A stretch of DNA of 64,000 bases from Candidatus Bathyarchaeota archaeon (lineage in GTDB: Archaea; Thermoproteota; Bathyarchaeia; Bathyarchaeales; Bathycorpusculaceae): the NCBI GenBank assembly GCA_963715865.1, contig OY970280.1:512001-576000 (forward strand). The letters are read 5' to 3'. The position numbers were made by a program, and so were the translations under genes. Positions 21,246 through 51,685 of the stretch are shown here, piece after piece. Numbering within the stretch: the stretch's first letter is position 1; each line of letters opens with the position of its first letter. Below the pieces are notes generated by a model. It did not search any database. It was not told the DNA's origin and was given only the letters and a program-made list of their open reading frames with translations.

Positions 21246-22145
21246 ATGCATAAGTTTTTTTTATTGTTTTTATTATTCTCAAGTTTATTTTTAACGGCAG
21301 GTATTTCTGCAATAAGTCAAGTGCAAGGGCAGAATCAAAACAATTATTCTTTGCAGATTCAGGGGCTTGCTTGGAACCGAACAACACTAAACGTTCTTCT
21401 CGTCACCCCAAATAACGTTTCATGGTGGAACCCCATCTATGTGAATTCGACGTTGCGAGCCATAGGCCAATGGAATGACGCGATTCGTTATTTTGCATCT
21501 AATTACTCCAACTTTGGATACCTTTCAAGCTTGAAATTTGAGCCGGCAGTTACGAATGAAACAAAAACAGGTTTTGATATCTGCCTTAATTGGACGGAGA
21601 CTACGCTAGACAATACCGCCGATGAAGTAGGGCTAACATCAACAACTGACCTCGTCAACGCCATAATAAACTGTACCATTAATCTTGCTGCACATACAAG
21701 CCATGGTGATGCTTTAAGCGATGGTGACATGCAAAATATTGCTCTTCACGAGTTGGGGCATAGTTTAGGTTTAGGGCATAGCAATTACACTGGCGATGTA
21801 ATGTATCCAGCGTATACTTTGCTAGGTTCTGCTGAATCAATCTCTACGCTTGATGTTTATGGAGTAGCCACTGTCTTTGCATGGATGTTAAATCCACCCA
21901 AGTTTTATCCAGTTAACGAGTGGCTGCAAAGTAATTCCGTGATTTTACCGTCAAATCAATATGAATATTTACCAGTGTCTCCTCAAAACGCTCGCCCCCA
22001 AACGCTCGCCAATAATCCTATTGTTCAAACTTTGATTTTAATGTTCGAGATTCTTATCCATCCTGAAATCCTAGCTATCGTGTTATTGTTTATCATAGTC
22101 CTGATTATTATCGCCTTAATTCCAAGCAAAAAGAAAAAGACCTAA
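21246..22145 (+). CDS. Membrane-anchored matrixin (M10) zinc metalloprotease
   Basis: Signal peptide, HELGHSLGLGHS, Met-turn DVMYP, C-terminal TM plus KKKK. Confidence 0.85.
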   Translation: MHKFFLLFLLFSSLFLTAGISAISQVQGQNQNNYSLQIQGLAWNRTTLNVLLVTPNNVSWWNPIYVNSTLRAIGQWNDAIRYFASNYSNFGYLSSLKFEPAVTNETKTGFDICLNWTETTLDNTADEVGLTSTTDLVNAIINCTINLAAHTSHGDALSDGDMQNIALHELGHSLGLGHSNYTGDVMYPAYTLLGSAESISTLDVYGVATVFAWMLNPPKFYPVNEWLQSNSVILPSNQYEYLPVSPQNARPQTLANNPIVQTLILMFEILIHPEILAIVLLFIIVLIIIALIPSKKKKT

Positions 22146-22756
22146 GGCTGCTTCATAAATTCGATAAAATCTTCAAGGCTTCTCGGCTGCAACGTATAGT
22201 TTGACTTTTTTTCTTCGCCAATAGTTGATGAAGGCTTCGGTCCATAGTCATGTCCGGGGTAAACTTCCACGTCATCGTTTAGTTTTAAGAGCTTAATGAA
22301 TAAGCTATCGTACATGCTTTTGGAGTTGCCGCCTGGCATGTCTGTTCTTCCGCATTCGCCAACAAATAAGGTGTCACCTGTCAACAGTTTCTTGTTATCA
22401 ACTAGCAGGCAGATACTGTCCATGGTGTGTCCTGGCGTATAAATTATCTTTATTGAGACTTTGCCAACAGTCAATACGTCGCCATCTTCAACTGCAATAT
22501 CAAAGTTAACTTTTGATAGTTTATAAGCAATTATTTTCGCTCCAAAAATAGAACCCAACTCAATGTTGCCAGCCGTATGGTCGGAGTGCCCGTGTGTATT
22601 TATGATAAATTTTAGATTCAGGTTTTTAGCTTTAAGGATATGAATTATTTCGCTTGCGTTAAAGCTTGAGTCAACAACGGCTGCTTCTTTAGTATTTTCG
22701 TCTGCTATGATGTACGAAAAGTTATCGCCATGCTGTTGGATTTGCTTAAAAAACAC
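22142..22756 (-). CDS. Metallo-beta-lactamase fold hydrolase (glyoxalase II/persulfide dioxygenase-like)
   Basis: THGHSDH, TPGHT, TGDTLF, PGHDY. Confidence 0.9.
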   Translation of the reverse strand: MFFKQIQQHGDNFSYIIADENTKEAAVVDSSFNASEIIHILKAKNLNLKFIINTHGHSDHTAGNIELGSIFGAKIIAYKLSKVNFDIAVEDGDVLTVGKVSIKIIYTPGHTMDSICLLVDNKKLLTGDTLFVGECGRTDMPGGNSKSMYDSLFIKLLKLNDDVEVYPGHDYGPKPSSTIGEEKKSNYTLQPRSLEDFIEFMKQP

Positions 22757-22843
22757 AAGTTTTACCCATTTTGTTCTTTTCTTCTTTGTCTACTTGCGTT
22801 TTTCTCGCCAAGCGCTCATCCAAGTAGTATTGAAACTTTTCTA

Positions 22844-23371
22844 TCATTGCAACACCTTCAAGAATCCGGAAACAACGGTTCCGTTTGCCAAGTTGTTTAA
22901 AAATTCCTTTTCAGCGTTACCTATTTGGATTTCGTATATGCTGATTTTCCTTTTTAAGTATTTTTCGAATTCCTTAAGGTTCAATTGAGCCTCCTTTTTT
23001 GTCACAACTGCAATATCTATGTCGCTTTGTGAAATGTCTTCACCTTTTGAATAGCTGCCAAAGACCACTATTGCTTCGGGTTCTTCATACTCGTCTCTTA
23101 GAAACTTTATTAATCCAGACTCAAAGAGAGAAAGGTTGTTGTAAGCTTTCTTAAGGATGAAGAACTTTTCGTTTCTCGAAGCCTTTACGTTTATTACCAC
23201 GTTTTTCTTTTCGGATACCAGCAGAGTTTTTTCTTTAAGTTTTTTAAGTATCTTAAGAACCCCAGGCGCAGATAAACCGGTTTGCCTAGCGATTTCTCGC
23301 ACATGGAATTTCTTGTCTGGGTTGTCGAAAAACAACTTCATAACTTTGTAATTGTTATCTTTAGTTAACAT
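22844..23371 (-). CDS. Winged-HTH + minimal nucleotidyltransferase (MNT) protein
   Basis: FHVREIARQTGLSAPGV HTH; VFGSYSKGED..SDIDIAV (GS..DxD). Confidence 0.85.
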   Translation of the reverse strand: MLTKDNNYKVMKLFFDNPDKKFHVREIARQTGLSAPGVLKILKKLKEKTLLVSEKKNVVINVKASRNEKFFILKKAYNNLSLFESGLIKFLRDEYEEPEAIVVFGSYSKGEDISQSDIDIAVVTKKEAQLNLKEFEKYLKRKISIYEIQIGNAEKEFLNNLANGTVVSGFLKVLQ

Positions 23372-23411
23372 CTGTAAATAATGGTTAACAACTGTTATTT
23401 AAAGTTAACAA
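23352..23411. promoter_or_regulatory. Three tandem 20-bp quasi-palindromic repeats over the wHTH-MNT promoter and start codon
   Basis: ttgttatctttagttaacat / ctgtaaataatggttaacaa / ctgttatttaaagttaacaa; GTTAAC at 23364, 23384, 23404. Confidence 0.65.
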
Positions 23412-23475
23412 GATTTTTTCCTATGACGAGGTAGTGGACTAAATACACACCTTTTTGGTTATGGCTAAAATAATC

Positions 23476-24219
23476 TTACGCTAAGAGACTTAAAAGTAAA
23501 TTTACATCTGAAGGAGGATAACCTGAGTAATACTTGCCGAAATAGCCGAAAACCTCCATTTGCTTGCTTACGAAAGGCTTTATTTTGTCCGCCCATAACT
23601 TTAGGTCTCCTCCTCTATCAGCTTCTATCTTGCCCAAGGTGCCTTTGACTTTTCTTCGGTCTCCTTCCCACCTAACGTAAATAAAATCAGAGGTTACCTC
23701 GTCGATTTGCGGCATTTGAGAGCTATCCACCCATGCCAAAACAACATTGTATTCCTTGAGAAGCGAATAAAAATCGTTGTTCAGTAACTTTTTAGTTCTA
23801 ACTTCCACCACATAACGGTGCTCCCTCGGCAAGTCCCTGAGAAAAACCTTCAAAAGAGGAAGAACCCCGTTTCCAAAAGCAGGCGGAAACTGAAGCAGCA
23901 GGCAACCGAGCTTCTCCTTTAACAACGCAACCTTGCCGAGAAAAGCGTTTGTTTCATCTTGGCAGTCTCTTAACATTTTAATGTGAGTTATAACTTGCGG
24001 AAACTTTAACGAGAACAAGAAGCCATTGGGCGTTTGCTTTTTCCAGTTGGTTATGGTTTGCTGGTTTGGGATTCGATAAAATGTGTTATCAACCTCAACC
24101 GTATTGAACTTTGTTGAGTAGTAAGCCAAAAAATCTTTAGAAGCAGTTTTATCTGGGTAAAAGTTTCCTTTCCAGAAATTGTAGCTCCAGCCTATCGTGC
24201 CAACATGAAGGTTATGCAT
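23476..24219 (-). CDS. DUF72 family protein
   Basis: GTIGWSY..W...FYP, VEVDNTFY, FSLKFP..ITH.K.L, LLQFPP, VEVR, YVRWEG. Confidence 0.9.
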   Translation of the reverse strand: MHNLHVGTIGWSYNFWKGNFYPDKTASKDFLAYYSTKFNTVEVDNTFYRIPNQQTITNWKKQTPNGFLFSLKFPQVITHIKMLRDCQDETNAFLGKVALLKEKLGCLLLQFPPAFGNGVLPLLKVFLRDLPREHRYVVEVRTKKLLNNDFYSLLKEYNVVLAWVDSSQMPQIDEVTSDFIYVRWEGDRRKVKGTLGKIEADRGGDLKLWADKIKPFVSKQMEVFGYFGKYYSGYPPSDVNLLLSLLA

Positions 24220-24220
24220 T

Positions 24221-25645
24221 TTATTCTTTCCCTTTTAGCAGTAGCCAATCCTTATCTCCAGCCTTCTTCAAACGCACCAGAATATAGCGTCCTTTGAGCC
24301 TTTGACCGTTAAGCGCGAACTCGATTTTGTTTTCATCCCAAACTTTAGCTTCATAATGTCCTTTATCCCAGATTTTAACTGTTCCAGCGCCATATTGCCC
24401 CTCAGGGATTGAACCTTCAAAATTAGCGTACTCGATAGGGTGATCCTCCGTTTCCACCGCCAAACGCCGCTGGCGAGTGCTTTCAGGCATTCCTTTCGGA
24501 ACAGCCCAACTTTTCAAAACACCACCATTTTCTAGTCTTAGGTCATAGTGAAGTCTTCTTGCATGGTGTTCTTGGATTACAAAAATTAAGTTGCCGCCCT
24601 TTTTCTCTCCACCCGTAGGTTCGGTGGTAACTTCAAAATTGCGTTTTGAGGCGTATTCTGAAAGTTTATCCTCAACATCTGTAACCTGTCTTTTACCTTC
24701 GATTATTTGGTCAAGAGTGCATTCAGCGGGCGATTTATCGTCTCTTAAACGTTGGAAACGTGCCATTCTCAGTTTGATATCACGTGTTACTACTTGATAA
24801 ATGACTTCGCAAACCAGCTTAGGCTCAAGCCAAGTTACCACGTCACCGACTTCTGGCTTAAAGAGAGCAACATCTGTTTTTAACTTTTCAAATTTATCAG
24901 TTAAAATTCCAAGCATCTCTTGTGAAAAACCCGTTCCAACCTTGCCAACATAAACAGGTTTACCATCTTTATCATAAAGCCCCAAAAGTAATGCCCCGAA
25001 AGTTTTTTCTCTAGAATCTGCCCCTTTTGTGTAACCAAAAATTACGCAGTCACAAGTCCGAAGTTTTTTAATTTTCAACCAATTCCCAGTCCGTAAACCT
25101 TCTTCATAATAACTATCCTTCTTCTTCGCCATTACCCCCTCTAAGCCTTTATCCAAAGCCAGTTGGTAATAGGCTTCGCCCTTCTCTTCTATAAAATCAG
25201 ATAACAAAACATTATTGCCTTCTTTTAATGAATCCTTCAAAATTTTTTTCCTCTTCATCAACGACAACTTAGTAAGCGGGTTCCCATCCTTCTCTAAAAC
25301 ATCAAAAACAACATAGATTGCTGGTGCTCGCCGAGCCTGCCTTTGAATTTCATTTGGCGAGACAGCTTGACCCCGCTCAAGCAAAGCTTGAAAGTCAGGT
25401 TTACCTTCGCGCATAACGACGATTTCGCCATCAAACACTACATTGCTGCTTAACCTGTTTAGTTCCTCTAACTCGGGAAAATTATGCTTGAGCTCTTTTC
25501 CGTTTCGGCTCTTTAAACTGTACGGTTCCTCTACGTAGGCGATTGCTCTAAAGCCGTCCCATTTTATCTCAAAAATCCAGTCCTTATCGGAAAAAGGTTT
25601 AGGGGCAACCCTTGCAAGCATAGGCCTGTAAATGTGGCGGCTCAT
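24221..25645 (-). CDS. ligD: NHEJ ATP-dependent DNA ligase fused to a C-terminal LigD 3'-phosphoesterase
   Basis: EIKWDGFRA, DGEIV, VFDVL, EGVMAK, WLKIK; PE: LSEYASKRNF, QEHHARRLHYDLRLE, SWAVPKG, TEDHP, GQYGAG. Confidence 0.92.
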   Translation of the reverse strand: MSRHIYRPMLARVAPKPFSDKDWIFEIKWDGFRAIAYVEEPYSLKSRNGKELKHNFPELEELNRLSSNVVFDGEIVVMREGKPDFQALLERGQAVSPNEIQRQARRAPAIYVVFDVLEKDGNPLTKLSLMKRKKILKDSLKEGNNVLLSDFIEEKGEAYYQLALDKGLEGVMAKKKDSYYEEGLRTGNWLKIKKLRTCDCVIFGYTKGADSREKTFGALLLGLYDKDGKPVYVGKVGTGFSQEMLGILTDKFEKLKTDVALFKPEVGDVVTWLEPKLVCEVIYQVVTRDIKLRMARFQRLRDDKSPAECTLDQIIEGKRQVTDVEDKLSEYASKRNFEVTTEPTGGEKKGGNLIFVIQEHHARRLHYDLRLENGGVLKSWAVPKGMPESTRQRRLAVETEDHPIEYANFEGSIPEGQYGAGTVKIWDKGHYEAKVWDENKIEFALNGQRLKGRYILVRLKKAGDKDWLLLKGKE

Positions 25646-26463
25646 TGCTGCTTTTCCAACTGTTTGAGGGTTTCTCGCAGGGCAACCATGAGACTTTTAG
25701 CTTCAACTTCTGGAGGCTTCTCAACGCGGATTTTTTCGCCTTTTAGCTTCTGTTCTATGATTTCTTCAACTTTTTTCTTGTAGCTATCCTCAAATTCGGT
25801 AATATCAAACTCGCCTGAAAGGTCAGTGACAATTTTTATAGCCAGATCTAACTCCGTTTTGCTTGGCTCCTTCAGCTTCTTTAGGTCTTCAAAATACTGA
25901 GGATTCACAACATCGTAGGCATAACGTAATATTGTTAAAACGAGTGCGCCTCTATACGCGTGCAATAAGGCAGGATATTCTTTAGTACGTAAAGTTATTC
26001 GTCCAGCACCAGCTTTGTTCTTTCTCTCAAGCGCCGTTAACAATAAACTGTAGGCTTCTTTGCTTTTATCAGGCATCAAAGCGTAGGTTTTATCAAAATA
26101 AATAGGGTCAACGGAGAAATAATCAACAAACTTGCTGATTCGGATTTGCCTGTCGGATTCTGGTTTGATTGCATCAAGTTCTTTCTTGTCAAACGTGACA
26201 TACTCGTTTTTAGCAACCTCATAACCTCTCACGACCTCGTCCCAAGGCACAATCTTGTCATCTTTAGTGCACACTTTCACGTATTTTAACGGTTGACCGT
26301 CAACCTTATGCAGAAAGCGAAATGATACTCCTTTGTCGTAAATCATAGGGTATAGTTTAACAGGAAGGTTAACTAAGCCTATAGTGACGCTTCCCGACCA
26401 AATTGGTCTCCTAGGGACGCTAGCACTTACGCGTTCTTCTTTCTCTAAATTTTCTTGAGCCAT
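25642..26463 (-). CDS. ku: Ku protein (prokaryotic NHEJ)
   Basis: RPIWSGSVTIGLVNLPVKLY, VVRGYE, IDPIYFDKTY-like, FEDSY, LMVALRETL; no basic C-tail. Confidence 0.95.
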   Translation of the reverse strand: MAQENLEKEERVSASVPRRPIWSGSVTIGLVNLPVKLYPMIYDKGVSFRFLHKVDGQPLKYVKVCTKDDKIVPWDEVVRGYEVAKNEYVTFDKKELDAIKPESDRQIRISKFVDYFSVDPIYFDKTYALMPDKSKEAYSLLLTALERKNKAGAGRITLRTKEYPALLHAYRGALVLTILRYAYDVVNPQYFEDLKKLKEPSKTELDLAIKIVTDLSGEFDITEFEDSYKKKVEEIIEQKLKGEKIRVEKPPEVEAKSLMVALRETLKQLEKQQ

Positions 26464-26465
26464 GA

Positions 26466-27353
26466 TTACACCTCAAGTTTGCATCTTTTTTCAAAAATGT
26501 CCTTCCACGGATTGCTTTTCCGTTTAACTACATTAAAGATAGTGAAATCCGAGGGGTTTATGCCTTTCTTTACTTCAGCCCACTCTAACGGCGTAGAAAC
26601 CGTCGCATCAGGCGTAGACCTTAAACTGTAAGGAACAACCATTGTCCGTAAAGGCGAATTCTGAAGGTAATCAGCGAAAACTTTGCCGGGCTTTTTTGTA
26701 TCCTTAAACTCTGAAACTACCATGTCACTTTCTTTAGCTAAGTTTATTCCGATTTTATGCACAAAAGCCCTTGTTTTCTCAAACGTATGTTCCGGAACAA
26801 TTGGAATTATGACGTGGAGGCCTTTTTTGCCTGAAGTTTTAACGAAAGGCGTAAGCCCTAAATCGTAAAGTTTGTCTTTAAGCAAAAGCGCAACCTCTGC
26901 GGCATCGCTTAACGTGGCTGGCGGTTCAGGGTCAATATCAAAAAATAGAAAATCAGGCTTGTCTAGAGTGTTAACTTTTGAGAATGGCATGTGGATTTCT
27001 ATGGCTGCCAAGTTTGCAAGCCAAATGAGCGTGTCCAAGTCATTGCAAATGACATAATCGATGTCTCGCTTGGTTGTTTCAGAATAAATCGTTTTTGTCT
27101 TAACCCATGGAGGTGTGCCTTCGGGGGCGTTCTTTTCAAAAAAACTTACTTTTTCTTTGTCCACACCATCAGGGTATCTGGTTAAAACTAACGGTCTGTC
27201 TGCTATAATCGGGAGCATTTTGGGAGCCATTTTAATGTAGTATTCGACAACTTGCCCTTTAGTAACGTTAATTTTAGGGTAAAAAATCTTGCCTAAGTTT
27301 TTTAGTTCAACTTTGGTTAATTCTTTAAGCTCTTCCACCATAATTTGCACCAA
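26466..27353 (-). CDS. LigD polymerase/primase domain (stand-alone NHEJ polymerase)
   Basis: LTRYPDG, FFEKN, WLANLAAIEIH, FDIDP, KTSGKKGLHV, DYLQN, YSLR. Confidence 0.93.
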   Translation of the reverse strand: MVQIMVEELKELTKVELKNLGKIFYPKINVTKGQVVEYYIKMAPKMLPIIADRPLVLTRYPDGVDKEKVSFFEKNAPEGTPPWVKTKTIYSETTKRDIDYVICNDLDTLIWLANLAAIEIHMPFSKVNTLDKPDFLFFDIDPEPPATLSDAAEVALLLKDKLYDLGLTPFVKTSGKKGLHVIIPIVPEHTFEKTRAFVHKIGINLAKESDMVVSEFKDTKKPGKVFADYLQNSPLRTMVVPYSLRSTPDATVSTPLEWAEVKKGINPSDFTIFNVVKRKSNPWKDIFEKRCKLEV

Positions 27354-27621
27354 AAATTGTTCAAGTTCAAACTTAACTCACTTAAATGTAATGTTTGTGA
27401 AGTCTAGCATTTTTCTTTTTTGGAAAAAAGACACAACCATGTAAACTAAACGTCTATATTTGCATGGCAAAAATACGATTTTTGGCAGCTACACCTATAT
27501 AGTCAACGTAGCATTAATAAATTGTCGAATTAATCTAGAGAAAGTAAATTTTGAAAGAACCATCACAGTTTGCTTTTTTCAAGATAATTCGCTAGGTAAA
27601 GAAGGAGAAAAAAAGAGTAGC

Positions 27622-28254
27622 ATGAGAACAAAAAAGCCCACACTAGAAGACCAACTTGCTTTTCTTTCGGCAAAACATAGCGTTTACCCTGCAGAACTCT
27701 TTCAGGCTTTGATCCAAGCAAAAGAACAGGGCAAATCAGTATGCGAAGATTTAACGGTTGAATACCGAGGAAACGTAAATGACCAGGCGATCTTTCTGAT
27801 TAAAAAAGACGATAAGGTAGTGGCACAGTTCCGGGTTCCCGAAGAAACGCTCTTAAAAAGGGACGTTTCATTCGACAATTGGATGGATACCACCAAAGTC
27901 CGCAAAGAGATAGCCAAGCAAAACCCCTCACCTGCACACATCAAGATAGAGGATTTACGTGTAGGCATGAAAAAAGTGAATGTGATTGCGGAGGTGTTGG
28001 AAACTTCTGAGCCATCCAAAGTTCACACTCAATTTAGAGATAACGCTCTTGTTTCTAACGCATGGATAGGGGATAAAACGGGAAAAATTATGCTTTGCCT
28101 CTGGGACCAACAAGTAAACGCTGTCTCTGTAGGGGACTGCATAGAAGTGAAAAATGCTCATGTAGCTACGTTTAAAGGAGAAAAACAGCTGCGCCTTGGA
28201 AAAAACGGAACAACCAAAATACTGGAAAAGTCCCTTCCAAGCGAAACAGCATAA
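27622..28254 (+). CDS. OB-fold ssDNA-binding (SSB/RPA-like) protein with N-terminal extension
   Basis: KIEDLRVGMKKVNV, IGDKTGKIMLCLWD, VGDCIEVKNA, FKGEKQLRLG. Confidence 0.75.
   Translation: MRTKKPTLEDQLAFLSAKHSVYPAELFQALIQAKEQGKSVCEDLTVEYRGNVNDQAIFLIKKDDKVVAQFRVPEETLLKRDVSFDNWMDTTKVRKEIAKQNPSPAHIKIEDLRVGMKKVNVIAEVLETSEPSKVHTQFRDNALVSNAWIGDKTGKIMLCLWDQQVNAVSVGDCIEVKNAHVATFKGEKQLRLGKNGTTKILEKSLPSETA

Positions 28255-48465: not shown

Positions 48466-51685
<3,220 letters not shown>

Follow-up and report, generated by a model that had tools for sequence, protein, structure and literature searches.

Non-homologous end joining (NHEJ) has been called extremely rare in archaea (PMC7554672). One survey found Ku in 10 of 243 archaeal genomes (PMC7719229), another covered 19 archaeal Ku sequences and leaves Bathyarchaeia unmentioned in its text (PMC11936186), and reviews cite one characterised archaeal example of the pathway. 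The closest described system, the archaeal NHEJ (AP-NHEJ) of Methanocella paludicola, is operonic and consists of Ku, a DNA ligase (Lig), a primase-polymerase (Pol) and a 3'-phosphoesterase (PE), all separate proteins (PMC4797286). The operon addressed here lies at positions 23476-27353, on the reverse strand, of a 64,000-nucleotide stretch (the window) of contig OY970280.1 from a Candidatus Bathyarchaeota archaeon of peat (assembly GCA_963715865.1, positions 512,001 to 576,000). It shares with Methanocella an archaeal host, an operonic arrangement, the same four activities and a stand-alone Pol, but its Lig and PE form one polypeptide and a gene of the DUF72 family follows. The rarity of Ku-type NHEJ in archaeal surveys and the separate proteins of Methanocella had both been correctly stated in the original prediction, which was made from the letters of the window.

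Other described systems share parts of this set. The LigD proteins of Pseudomonas (PE-Lig-Pol, PRK05972) and Mycobacterium (Pol-PE-Lig, PRK09632) contain homologous modules with the same catalytic residues and have a Ku partner, but their Pol is fused and their PE lies N-terminal to the ligase, whereas here Pol is free and PE is C-terminal. Bacterial LigDs of the Lig-PE-Pol type (Parapedobacter, Opitutia, Blastocatellia and a Bacilli locus, L040), which exist solely as database entries, have the Lig-to-PE order, but their Pol is fused C-terminally and they are only 35-46% identical to the Lig-PE described here. The PEs of Korarchaeum cryptofilum and Methanosarcina barkeri (PMC3082917) have the same beta-barrel and the same six catalytic residues and are the closest solved structures, yet they are free-standing and have no link to Ku; the present genome holds a compact free PE of this kind as well. 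Finally, for the ancestor of Nitrososphaerales, mesophiles of soil that belong to this phylum as well, a complete NHEJ set has been inferred and attributed to acquisition from bacteria (PMC7554672). In contrast to the present operon, the Nitrososphaerales locus compared here (L041) has PE, Lig and Pol on one strand in the bacterial order, with a ligase that is 39% identical and falls outside the archaeal Lig-PE clade.

Organisation of the Operon and Identity of Its Products

The four genes are best explained as a chromosomal, vertically maintained archaeal NHEJ operon composed of Pol, Ku, a Lig-PE fusion and DUF72, with a probability of about 85%. This reading is carried by the identity of the genes, their intact catalytic residues, the fusion itself, and its conservation and distribution. 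The features are as follows.

26466-27353, reverse strand: Pol, stand-alone LigD-type primase-polymerase (NHEJ Pol), 295 aa (PF21686, TIGR02778 and 5DMU match)
25642-26463, reverse strand: Ku, prokaryotic homodimer type, 273 aa (PF02735, TIGR02772 and 9VNQ match)
24221-25645, reverse strand: Lig-PE fusion open reading frame (ORF), 474 aa (PF01068, PF04679 and PF13298)
25067-25624, reverse strand: Lig-PE residues 8-193, ligase nucleotidyltransferase domain with motif I KWDG (K28) (PF01068, 2e-33)
24734-25012, reverse strand: Lig-PE residues 212-304, ligase OB domain (PF04679, 7e-24)
24665-24733, reverse strand: Lig-PE residues 305-327, short variable OB-to-PE linker (alignment, AlphaFold2, split congener L033)
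24227-24664, reverse strand: Lig-PE residues 328-473, LigD 3'-phosphoesterase including its N-terminal peptide (TIGR02777, PF13298)
23476-24219, reverse strand: DUF72, TIM-barrel protein, 247 aa, fourth gene of the operon (PF01904, 1VPQ homology)
27354-27459, no strand: intergenic region shared with a divergent gene of single-stranded-DNA-binding-protein (SSB) type, likely operon promoter region (judged from its sequence)

In the ORF list the four frames are consecutive in the order of transcription, with a 2-nt gap between Pol and Ku, a 4-nt overlap between Ku and Lig-PE, and a 1-nt gap between Lig-PE and DUF72. These junctions, together with strong profile scores and the catalytic residues described below, bear out the original prediction of contiguous Pol, Ku and Lig-PE genes with intact motifs. 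Its further statements that PE is fused C-terminal to the ligase while Pol is free, and that PE retains the N-terminal peptide SEY..KRNF..T.EP, agree with the Pfam and NCBIfam domain order and with the presence of the peptide at residues 328-343. The interval it assigned to three genes also contains the fourth, DUF72, which it passed over.

Families were assigned by Pfam and NCBIfam profiles, and the NCBIfam scores were compared with the family cut-offs. Pol matches PF21686 (5e-82) and TIGR02778 (252.1 bits, cut-off 214.7), and among solved structures it comes closest to the NHEJ polymerase of Methanocella paludicola, 5DMU (1e-47); its catalytic aspartates are in place, with FDIDP (DxD) and DYLQN (the later Asp) aligning to 5DMU and 6SA0. 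Ku, comprising the Ku70/80 beta-barrel core, matches PF02735 (3e-41) and TIGR02772 (249.6 bits, cut-off 150). It is closest among solved Ku proteins to the bacterial 9VNQ (5e-43) and is the sole Ku match in the genome. The ligase part of Lig-PE reaches 265.4 bits with TIGR02779 (cut-off 227.75) over residues 8-310, and its motif I lysine K28 (KWDG), which aligns with the LigD ligase domain of M. tuberculosis (1VS0), is invariant in 14 relatives. Because a separate, replicative-type ATP ligase is encoded elsewhere in the genome, Lig-PE is an additional, dedicated ligase.

The PE part scores 193.6 bits with TIGR02777 (cut-off 144) over residues 328-473 and matches PF13298 (2e-42) over residues 358-458. 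Its active site, H360, H366, D368, R370, H402 and Y406, aligns to H42, H48, D50, R52, H84 and Y88 of the Pseudomonas PE, and all six residues are invariant in an alignment of 14 relatives. The nearest solved structure is 3P43 (1.5e-46), which we take to be the stand-alone Korarchaeum PE, ahead of the Methanocella PE (5DMP, 8e-35). The linker at residues 305-327 varies in length among aligned relatives, with the Lig-PE junction itself conserved, and an AlphaFold2 model (mean predicted local distance difference test score, pLDDT, 88; predicted template modelling score, pTM, 0.61) resolves three confident modules, with pLDDT below 50 at linker residues 317-322. The fusion as a sequencing artefact was rejected, given the conserved junction and the same architecture in more than 120 protein clusters.

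By sequence, all four genes that define AP-NHEJ are therefore present: Ku, a dedicated ATP ligase, a primase-polymerase of the archaeo-eukaryotic primase (AEP) type and a 3'-phosphoesterase. The locus does not encode a three-domain LigD, as Pol is separate and the corresponding models score 429/989 (PRK09632), 405/895 (PRK05972) and 229/373 bits (TIGR02776). The protein belongs instead to an archaeal two-domain Lig-PE clade, a grouping defined in the present analysis, whose members have 457-499 aa, the arrangement nucleotidyltransferase, OB, short linker and PE, and a position directly after Ku.

The window sits in a single 2.35-Mb archaeal contig, called a closed chromosome and 97.9% complete. 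An archaeal 23S (large-subunit) rRNA lies at 48559-51585 of the window, 21 kb from the operon, and the G+C content over 22001-28000 is 0.385-0.413, compared with 0.37-0.45 in the rest of the window excluding the rRNA gene.

Distribution in Bathyarchaeia and Beyond

A survey of the class, as had been suggested with the original prediction, was made on an even draw of 301 Bathyarchaeia species genomes from 107 genera. Ku is present in 75 of them, spread over 15 genera and six families. In a sample taken at the level of the order, Ku occurs in 20 of 24 congeners but in only one of 16 genomes from outside the genus. The loci fetched for comparison comprised 18 Ku loci within the class and two in a different one, the locus of an additional congener, three PE remnants from genomes lacking Ku, and three archaeal loci from named metagenome-assembled genomes (MAGs). 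The Lig-PE layout extends to at least five families, with the order Pol-Ku-LigPE-DUF72 recurring in families f1, f7, f24 and f31 and in genus g97 of f35. The same four-gene order appears in two genomes of family f46, which belongs to another class and in which mcrA was found in all five members tested, and in a contig labelled Methanosarcinales; a contig labelled Methanoregula carries Pol, Ku and Lig-PE without DUF72. For these last two contigs the host is given by the MAG label.

More than 120 protein clusters share the Lig-PE architecture, at 457-490 aa plus one fragment of 397 aa, and have already been named NHEJ-ligase or LigD by NCBI or JGI. The doubt attached to the original prediction, that such an architecture might already be documented as common in the lineage, was thus half justified: a literature search outside subscription journals found no paper on NHEJ in Bathyarchaeia or on the Lig-PE architecture, yet the architecture is clearly common there, with Ku in a sizeable part of the class and the named clusters in place.

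A second type of operon, found in genera g78 and g104 of f35, combines Ku with a ligase of 318-320 aa without PE and a divergent Pol, and its two g104 loci additionally carry DUF72 and a convergent stand-alone PE. This type resembles the Methanocella system more than the Lig-PE type does. By Ku score it accounts for 21 of the 75 Ku-positive genomes, and about two thirds of the Ku-positives have the Ku type of the Lig-PE operon. In the order-level sample, Ku-positive genomes that are at least 90% complete are mostly 2.0-3.2 Mb, against 1.2-2.0 Mb (mostly below 1.7) for Ku-negative ones, a contrast confounded by the relatedness of the genomes.

PE domains are more widespread, occurring in 226 of the 301 genomes, mostly as free-standing genes with open frames of about 150-220 aa. 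The genome analysed here holds one outside the window, at G000:C1:1111224-1111577 (L030), a compact stand-alone LigD-type PE with a 132-aa frame and no N-terminal peptide, which groups with the Ku-independent stand-alone PEs widespread in the class. In genus g64 of f24, two stand-alone PEs with frames of about 220 aa (L133, L134) have the top TIGR02777 scores in the class and group with bacterial LigD PE domains, apart from other archaeal PEs, a placement that suggests a separate acquisition.

Domain Order and Relation to Bacterial LigD Proteins

An exhaustive search of 1.84 billion representatives returned 3320 matches at E <=1e-30, and domain order was read in the best 150. These comprise 84 PE-Lig-Pol, 44 PE-Lig, nine Pol-PE-Lig, eight Lig-PE and four Lig-PE-Pol proteins, and one ligase alone. 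The Lig-PE-Pol proteins are bacterial, with the order confirmed by Pfam in Parapedobacter lycopersici (WP_257658088.1), Opitutia (OAI50838.1) and Blastocatellia (HYE74803.1). In addition, the locus L040 of a Bacilli MAG (CAJUPN010000001.1) has Ku followed by Lig, PE and Pol on one strand, an order outside the usual LigD schemes. These proteins and this locus led us to reject a Lig-to-PE order unique to archaea. A PE located C-terminal to the ligase is rare, not restricted to archaea; the difference from the Pseudomonas and mycobacterial LigDs that had been pointed out at the outset stands, without being unique.

A per-domain tblastn analysis of 76 bacterial loci found PE before Lig in 65 and no PE in ten. 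Among the loci from named genomes, Lig followed by PE occurs only in L037-L040, and L040 alone of these is bacterial. An apparent Lig-PE arrangement in about 80 bacteria, with matches over query residues 6-474, was rejected by the same per-domain analysis.

In the ligase-domain tree, all 22 archaeal sequences of the Lig-PE type form one clade (SH-aLRT 98), whose sister is the ligase-only type of Bathyarchaeia (support 80). The Opitutia and Bacilli Lig-PE-Pol proteins branch next, at an unresolved fork (support 86), and other bacterial Lig-PE(-Pol) proteins fall elsewhere. In the short PE tree, a well-supported bacterial clade takes in the PE of every bacterial Lig-PE-Pol protein and none of the archaeal fused PEs. 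When a single origin of the Lig-to-PE order was put to approximately unbiased (AU) tests, the outcome was p=0.084 for the ligase domain and p=0.042 for PE, with groups that were named after the trees had been inspected. Taken together, these sequence comparisons lean towards an independent origin of the archaeal and bacterial Lig-to-PE fusions. The ligase and PE trees make up part of the phylogenies that had been proposed as a check on the locus; they are unrooted, so they carry no direction for any transfer between domains. Within the archaeal Lig-PE clade, f1, f7 and two f24 genera are each coherent.

Natural Variants, Splits and Decay

Related genomes provide a natural series of altered operons. 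The congener G024 (L033, G024:C2) encodes a 319-aa Lig and a 160-aa PE as separate, overlapping ORFs, with the split falling exactly at the OB-PE linker, and has no DUF72. In G129 (L026, G129:C1, family f26) PE is missing from the ligase, which is in turn divided between ORFs of 91 and 215 aa, and in a locus of family f7 (L012, G228:C7) DUF72 is broken into two ORFs. Three congener loci (L027, L028 and L033) carry an insert of about 1.4 kb between Pol and Ku; in L027, the one scanned, its product is an aldo-keto reductase with a fused 4Fe-4S ferredoxin domain (L027:6809-8032). The Pol-Ku gap of L020 holds an AsnC-type regulator.

Three Ku-less loci of f1 (L034, L035 and L036) contain PE genes preserving a stub of the ligase C-terminus, some with an internal stop. 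These look like decaying Lig-PE remnants left after loss of the rest of the operon. In the PE tree the Ku-less stubs are placed beside the intact copies found in the same genera, a position suggesting that the operon was inherited and then decayed.

Several points weigh against a vertically maintained NHEJ operon with these four components. Neither the Lig-PE fusion nor DUF72 is indispensable, because G024 has a split Lig and PE and no DUF72; both are dispensable. The compact Pol-Ku junction is not universal, and strict co-transcription of Pol is not conserved, because an unrelated gene, for an aldo-keto reductase, is inserted between Pol and Ku in some congeners. The topology of the Lig-PE clade follows taxonomy only loosely; some transfer among archaea is likely because f35(g97) groups with f31 and f7 and because f46 is nested inside the clade. 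The methanogen hosts of two contigs are those given by MAG labels, and the NHEJ proteins of Bathyarchaeia are known from sequence.

DUF72 as a Candidate Accessory Factor

The fourth gene belongs to DUF72 (UPF0759, PF01904) by sequence and by fold, matching TM1631 and EF0366. It scores 7e-55 with PF01904 and is homologous to TM1631 (1VPQ) at 1e-16; its AlphaFold2 model (pLDDT 93) aligns to 1VPQ over 239 residues with a Z score of 25.2 and a root-mean-square deviation of 2.6. The best matches are DUF72 structures (Z about 25), and those ranked next, at Z 12-13.6, are nearly all xylose-isomerase-like TIM barrels. Among these, endonuclease IV (5ZHZ) and UVDE (4GLE), both at Z 12.9, tie with sugar epimerases belonging to that superfamily (Z 12-13.6). 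A nuclease role for TM1631 has been predicted computationally only (PMC3828134).

DUF72 lies downstream of the ligase in 19 of the 25 archaeal NHEJ loci examined, in one of them with a split frame. Of the 76 bacterial loci, 11 have it no more than 3.5 kb away from LigD or Ku, in most cases right beside them (L049, L062, L066, L072, L077, L078, L090, L105, L107, L113 and L108), and these represent eight or more phylum-level groups; the count is 10 of 75 when L108, from a genome flagged as unpublished (G671), is left aside. Co-occurrence of DUF72 and Ku across the class is uninformative, because DUF72 is present in 263 of the 301 genomes, often in several copies. In genera g1, g16 and g21, all Ku-less genomes but one are also without any DUF72.

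For the DUF72 tree, the unpublished entry was excluded, and 19 unlinked Bathyarchaeia paralogues and second copies from the same bacterial genomes were included. The archaeal operon-linked copies form one clade (support 99/98), and the LigD-adjacent bacterial copies from seven lineages form another (96/90) together with the archaeal copies of the f35 type. Both clades are separate from the unlinked Bathyarchaeia paralogues and from the bacterial second copies. A single clade for all NHEJ-linked DUF72 is neither shown nor rejected by the AU test (p=0.063).

Operon-linked DUF72 is accordingly a good candidate for an NHEJ accessory factor. A stronger proposal treats Pol-Ku-LigPE-DUF72 as a distinct archaeal NHEJ module in which the operon-linked DUF72 would be a fifth enzyme, a metal-dependent TIM barrel of the endonuclease IV/UVDE superfamily that cleans damaged ends or abasic sites ahead of ligation. 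The same subfamily would also serve bacterial LigD/Ku systems, and NHEJ as such would be frequent in this large, uncultured class of archaea. This proposal is tentative, and we are rather more inclined to doubt it than to accept it.

Proposed Mechanism and Alternative Functions

As a chromosomal archaeal NHEJ operon, the locus probably acts through the scheme known from other systems (PMC4797286, PMC8656161, PMC3082917). By analogy with Methanocella and mycobacteria, a Ku homodimer would thread onto the broken ends and recruit the enzymes. The stand-alone Pol would then bridge the ends in synapsis and fill gaps or extend them, mainly with ribonucleotides, after which PE would trim the ribonucleotide tract or a 3'-phosphate to a ligatable 3'-OH and the ATP-dependent ligase module would close the nick. 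The fusion would place end-healing and sealing on one polypeptide at a fixed 1:1 stoichiometry. The order of these steps, the benefit of the fusion and the role of DUF72 are what we infer. A link to slow growth or dormancy, proposed in the original prediction, is a conjecture that the bacterial literature makes plausible.

The module might instead serve mainly other end or gap repair, such as filling ribonucleotide gaps or handling foreign linear DNA, with DUF72 as a mere passenger. The mycobacterial LigC/Prim-PolC system offers a model of ribonucleotide-dependent gap filling, and mycobacterial NHEJ has reportedly been tied to antiphage defence (PMC12848934). Stand-alone PE is also far commoner than Ku (226 against 75 of 301 genomes), pointing to Ku-independent PE roles, and the genome has its second compact PE elsewhere; the near-ubiquity and multiple copies of DUF72 would suit a passenger. 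Nevertheless, an intact Ku is present here, in translational coupling with the ligase. The operon also encodes the complete set of four activities defining AP-NHEJ, just as Methanocella does (PMC4797286), and the clades into which operon-linked DUF72 falls leave out the unlinked paralogues. With this evidence on both sides, a main task other than rejoining chromosomal double-strand breaks is improbable.

Inheritance Versus Transfer

The lateral acquisition suggested in the original prediction holds at most for an old event, since the operon looks inherited and repeatedly lost within the family. It was inherited from at least the ancestor of the genus, and transfer into the lineage, if there was any, is old. 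A recent acquisition from bacteria would fit the patchy occurrence of Ku in the class (15 of 107 genera and, within the order, a single positive among the 16 sampled genomes of other genera), the bacterial LigDs as closest non-archaeal ligase domains at about 35-45% identity, and published reports of horizontal transfer of Ku and LigD between domains (PMC7719229, PMC7554672). Against it stand the absence of any compositional anomaly at the operon and orthologues that are 50-75% identical, in the same gene order, across several families. Moreover, the archaeal Lig-PE clade is sister (support 80) to the other type of Bathyarchaeia NHEJ ligase and is not nested in any particular bacterial group, and the remnants decaying in sister genera speak for inheritance with later loss. 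Recent transfer is therefore very unlikely, and an ancient inter-domain transfer is possible.

Bacterial contamination or an assembly chimera in an archaeal bin might be suspected from the overwhelmingly bacterial LigD family (137 of the best 150 representatives at 50% identity are PE-Lig-Pol, PE-Lig or Pol-PE-Lig, and members looked up or met in named genomes are almost all bacterial), but it is rejected with near certainty, and the Bathyarchaeia host first proposed is upheld, by the closed 2.35-Mb contig, the nearby archaeal 23S rRNA, the even G+C content, the synteny in congeners of the operon with a flanking metallo-beta-lactamase-fold (MBL) hydrolase gene and the SSB-like gene, the Ku of 20 of 24 congeners, and closest Lig-PE proteins that are 75-97% identical and carry a Bathyarchaeia label wherever the source names the organism.

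Promoter Region and Neighbouring Genes

The A/T-rich region at 27354-27459 has a TTTAAG-type element about 40 nt upstream of an ATG at 27341 and is likely the operon promoter region. The start of Pol is probably this ATG, preceded at a distance of 8 nt by a GGTG, rather than the TTG at 27353. Divergent from Pol and upstream of it, the SSB-like OB-fold gene occupies 27460-28254 on the forward strand (PF21473, 4e-10); it is syntenic in two of the three congeners examined (L027, L033) and was not seen beside the operon in other families. Downstream of the operon, both on the reverse strand, lie a gene for a helix-turn-helix and minimal nucleotidyltransferase protein (22844-23371), with the TATA-like TTTAAATA upstream, and the MBL hydrolase gene (22142-22756), which keeps its synteny with the operon in congeners.

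Significance

The operon is a lineage-typical rearrangement of known repair modules and not a one-off. It offers nothing mechanistically new, its proteins had already been annotated by machine, and its interest, a modest one, lies in comparison. The gradation that nature provides, from a fused Lig-PE through the split Lig and PE of a congener to wholly separate genes in another family, allows a comparison of what is gained by fusing healing to sealing. The link to DUF72 is the most promising lead, as this recurrent partner in archaea and in numerous phyla of bacteria might supply an end-processing activity that is missing from the set, a proposal open to testing. With Ku encoded by roughly one in four of the Bathyarchaeia species sampled (75 of 301), in a domain where NHEJ has been described as extremely rare, the finding alters the view of how abundant archaea of sediment and peat may survive double-strand breaks when a sister chromosome is absent.

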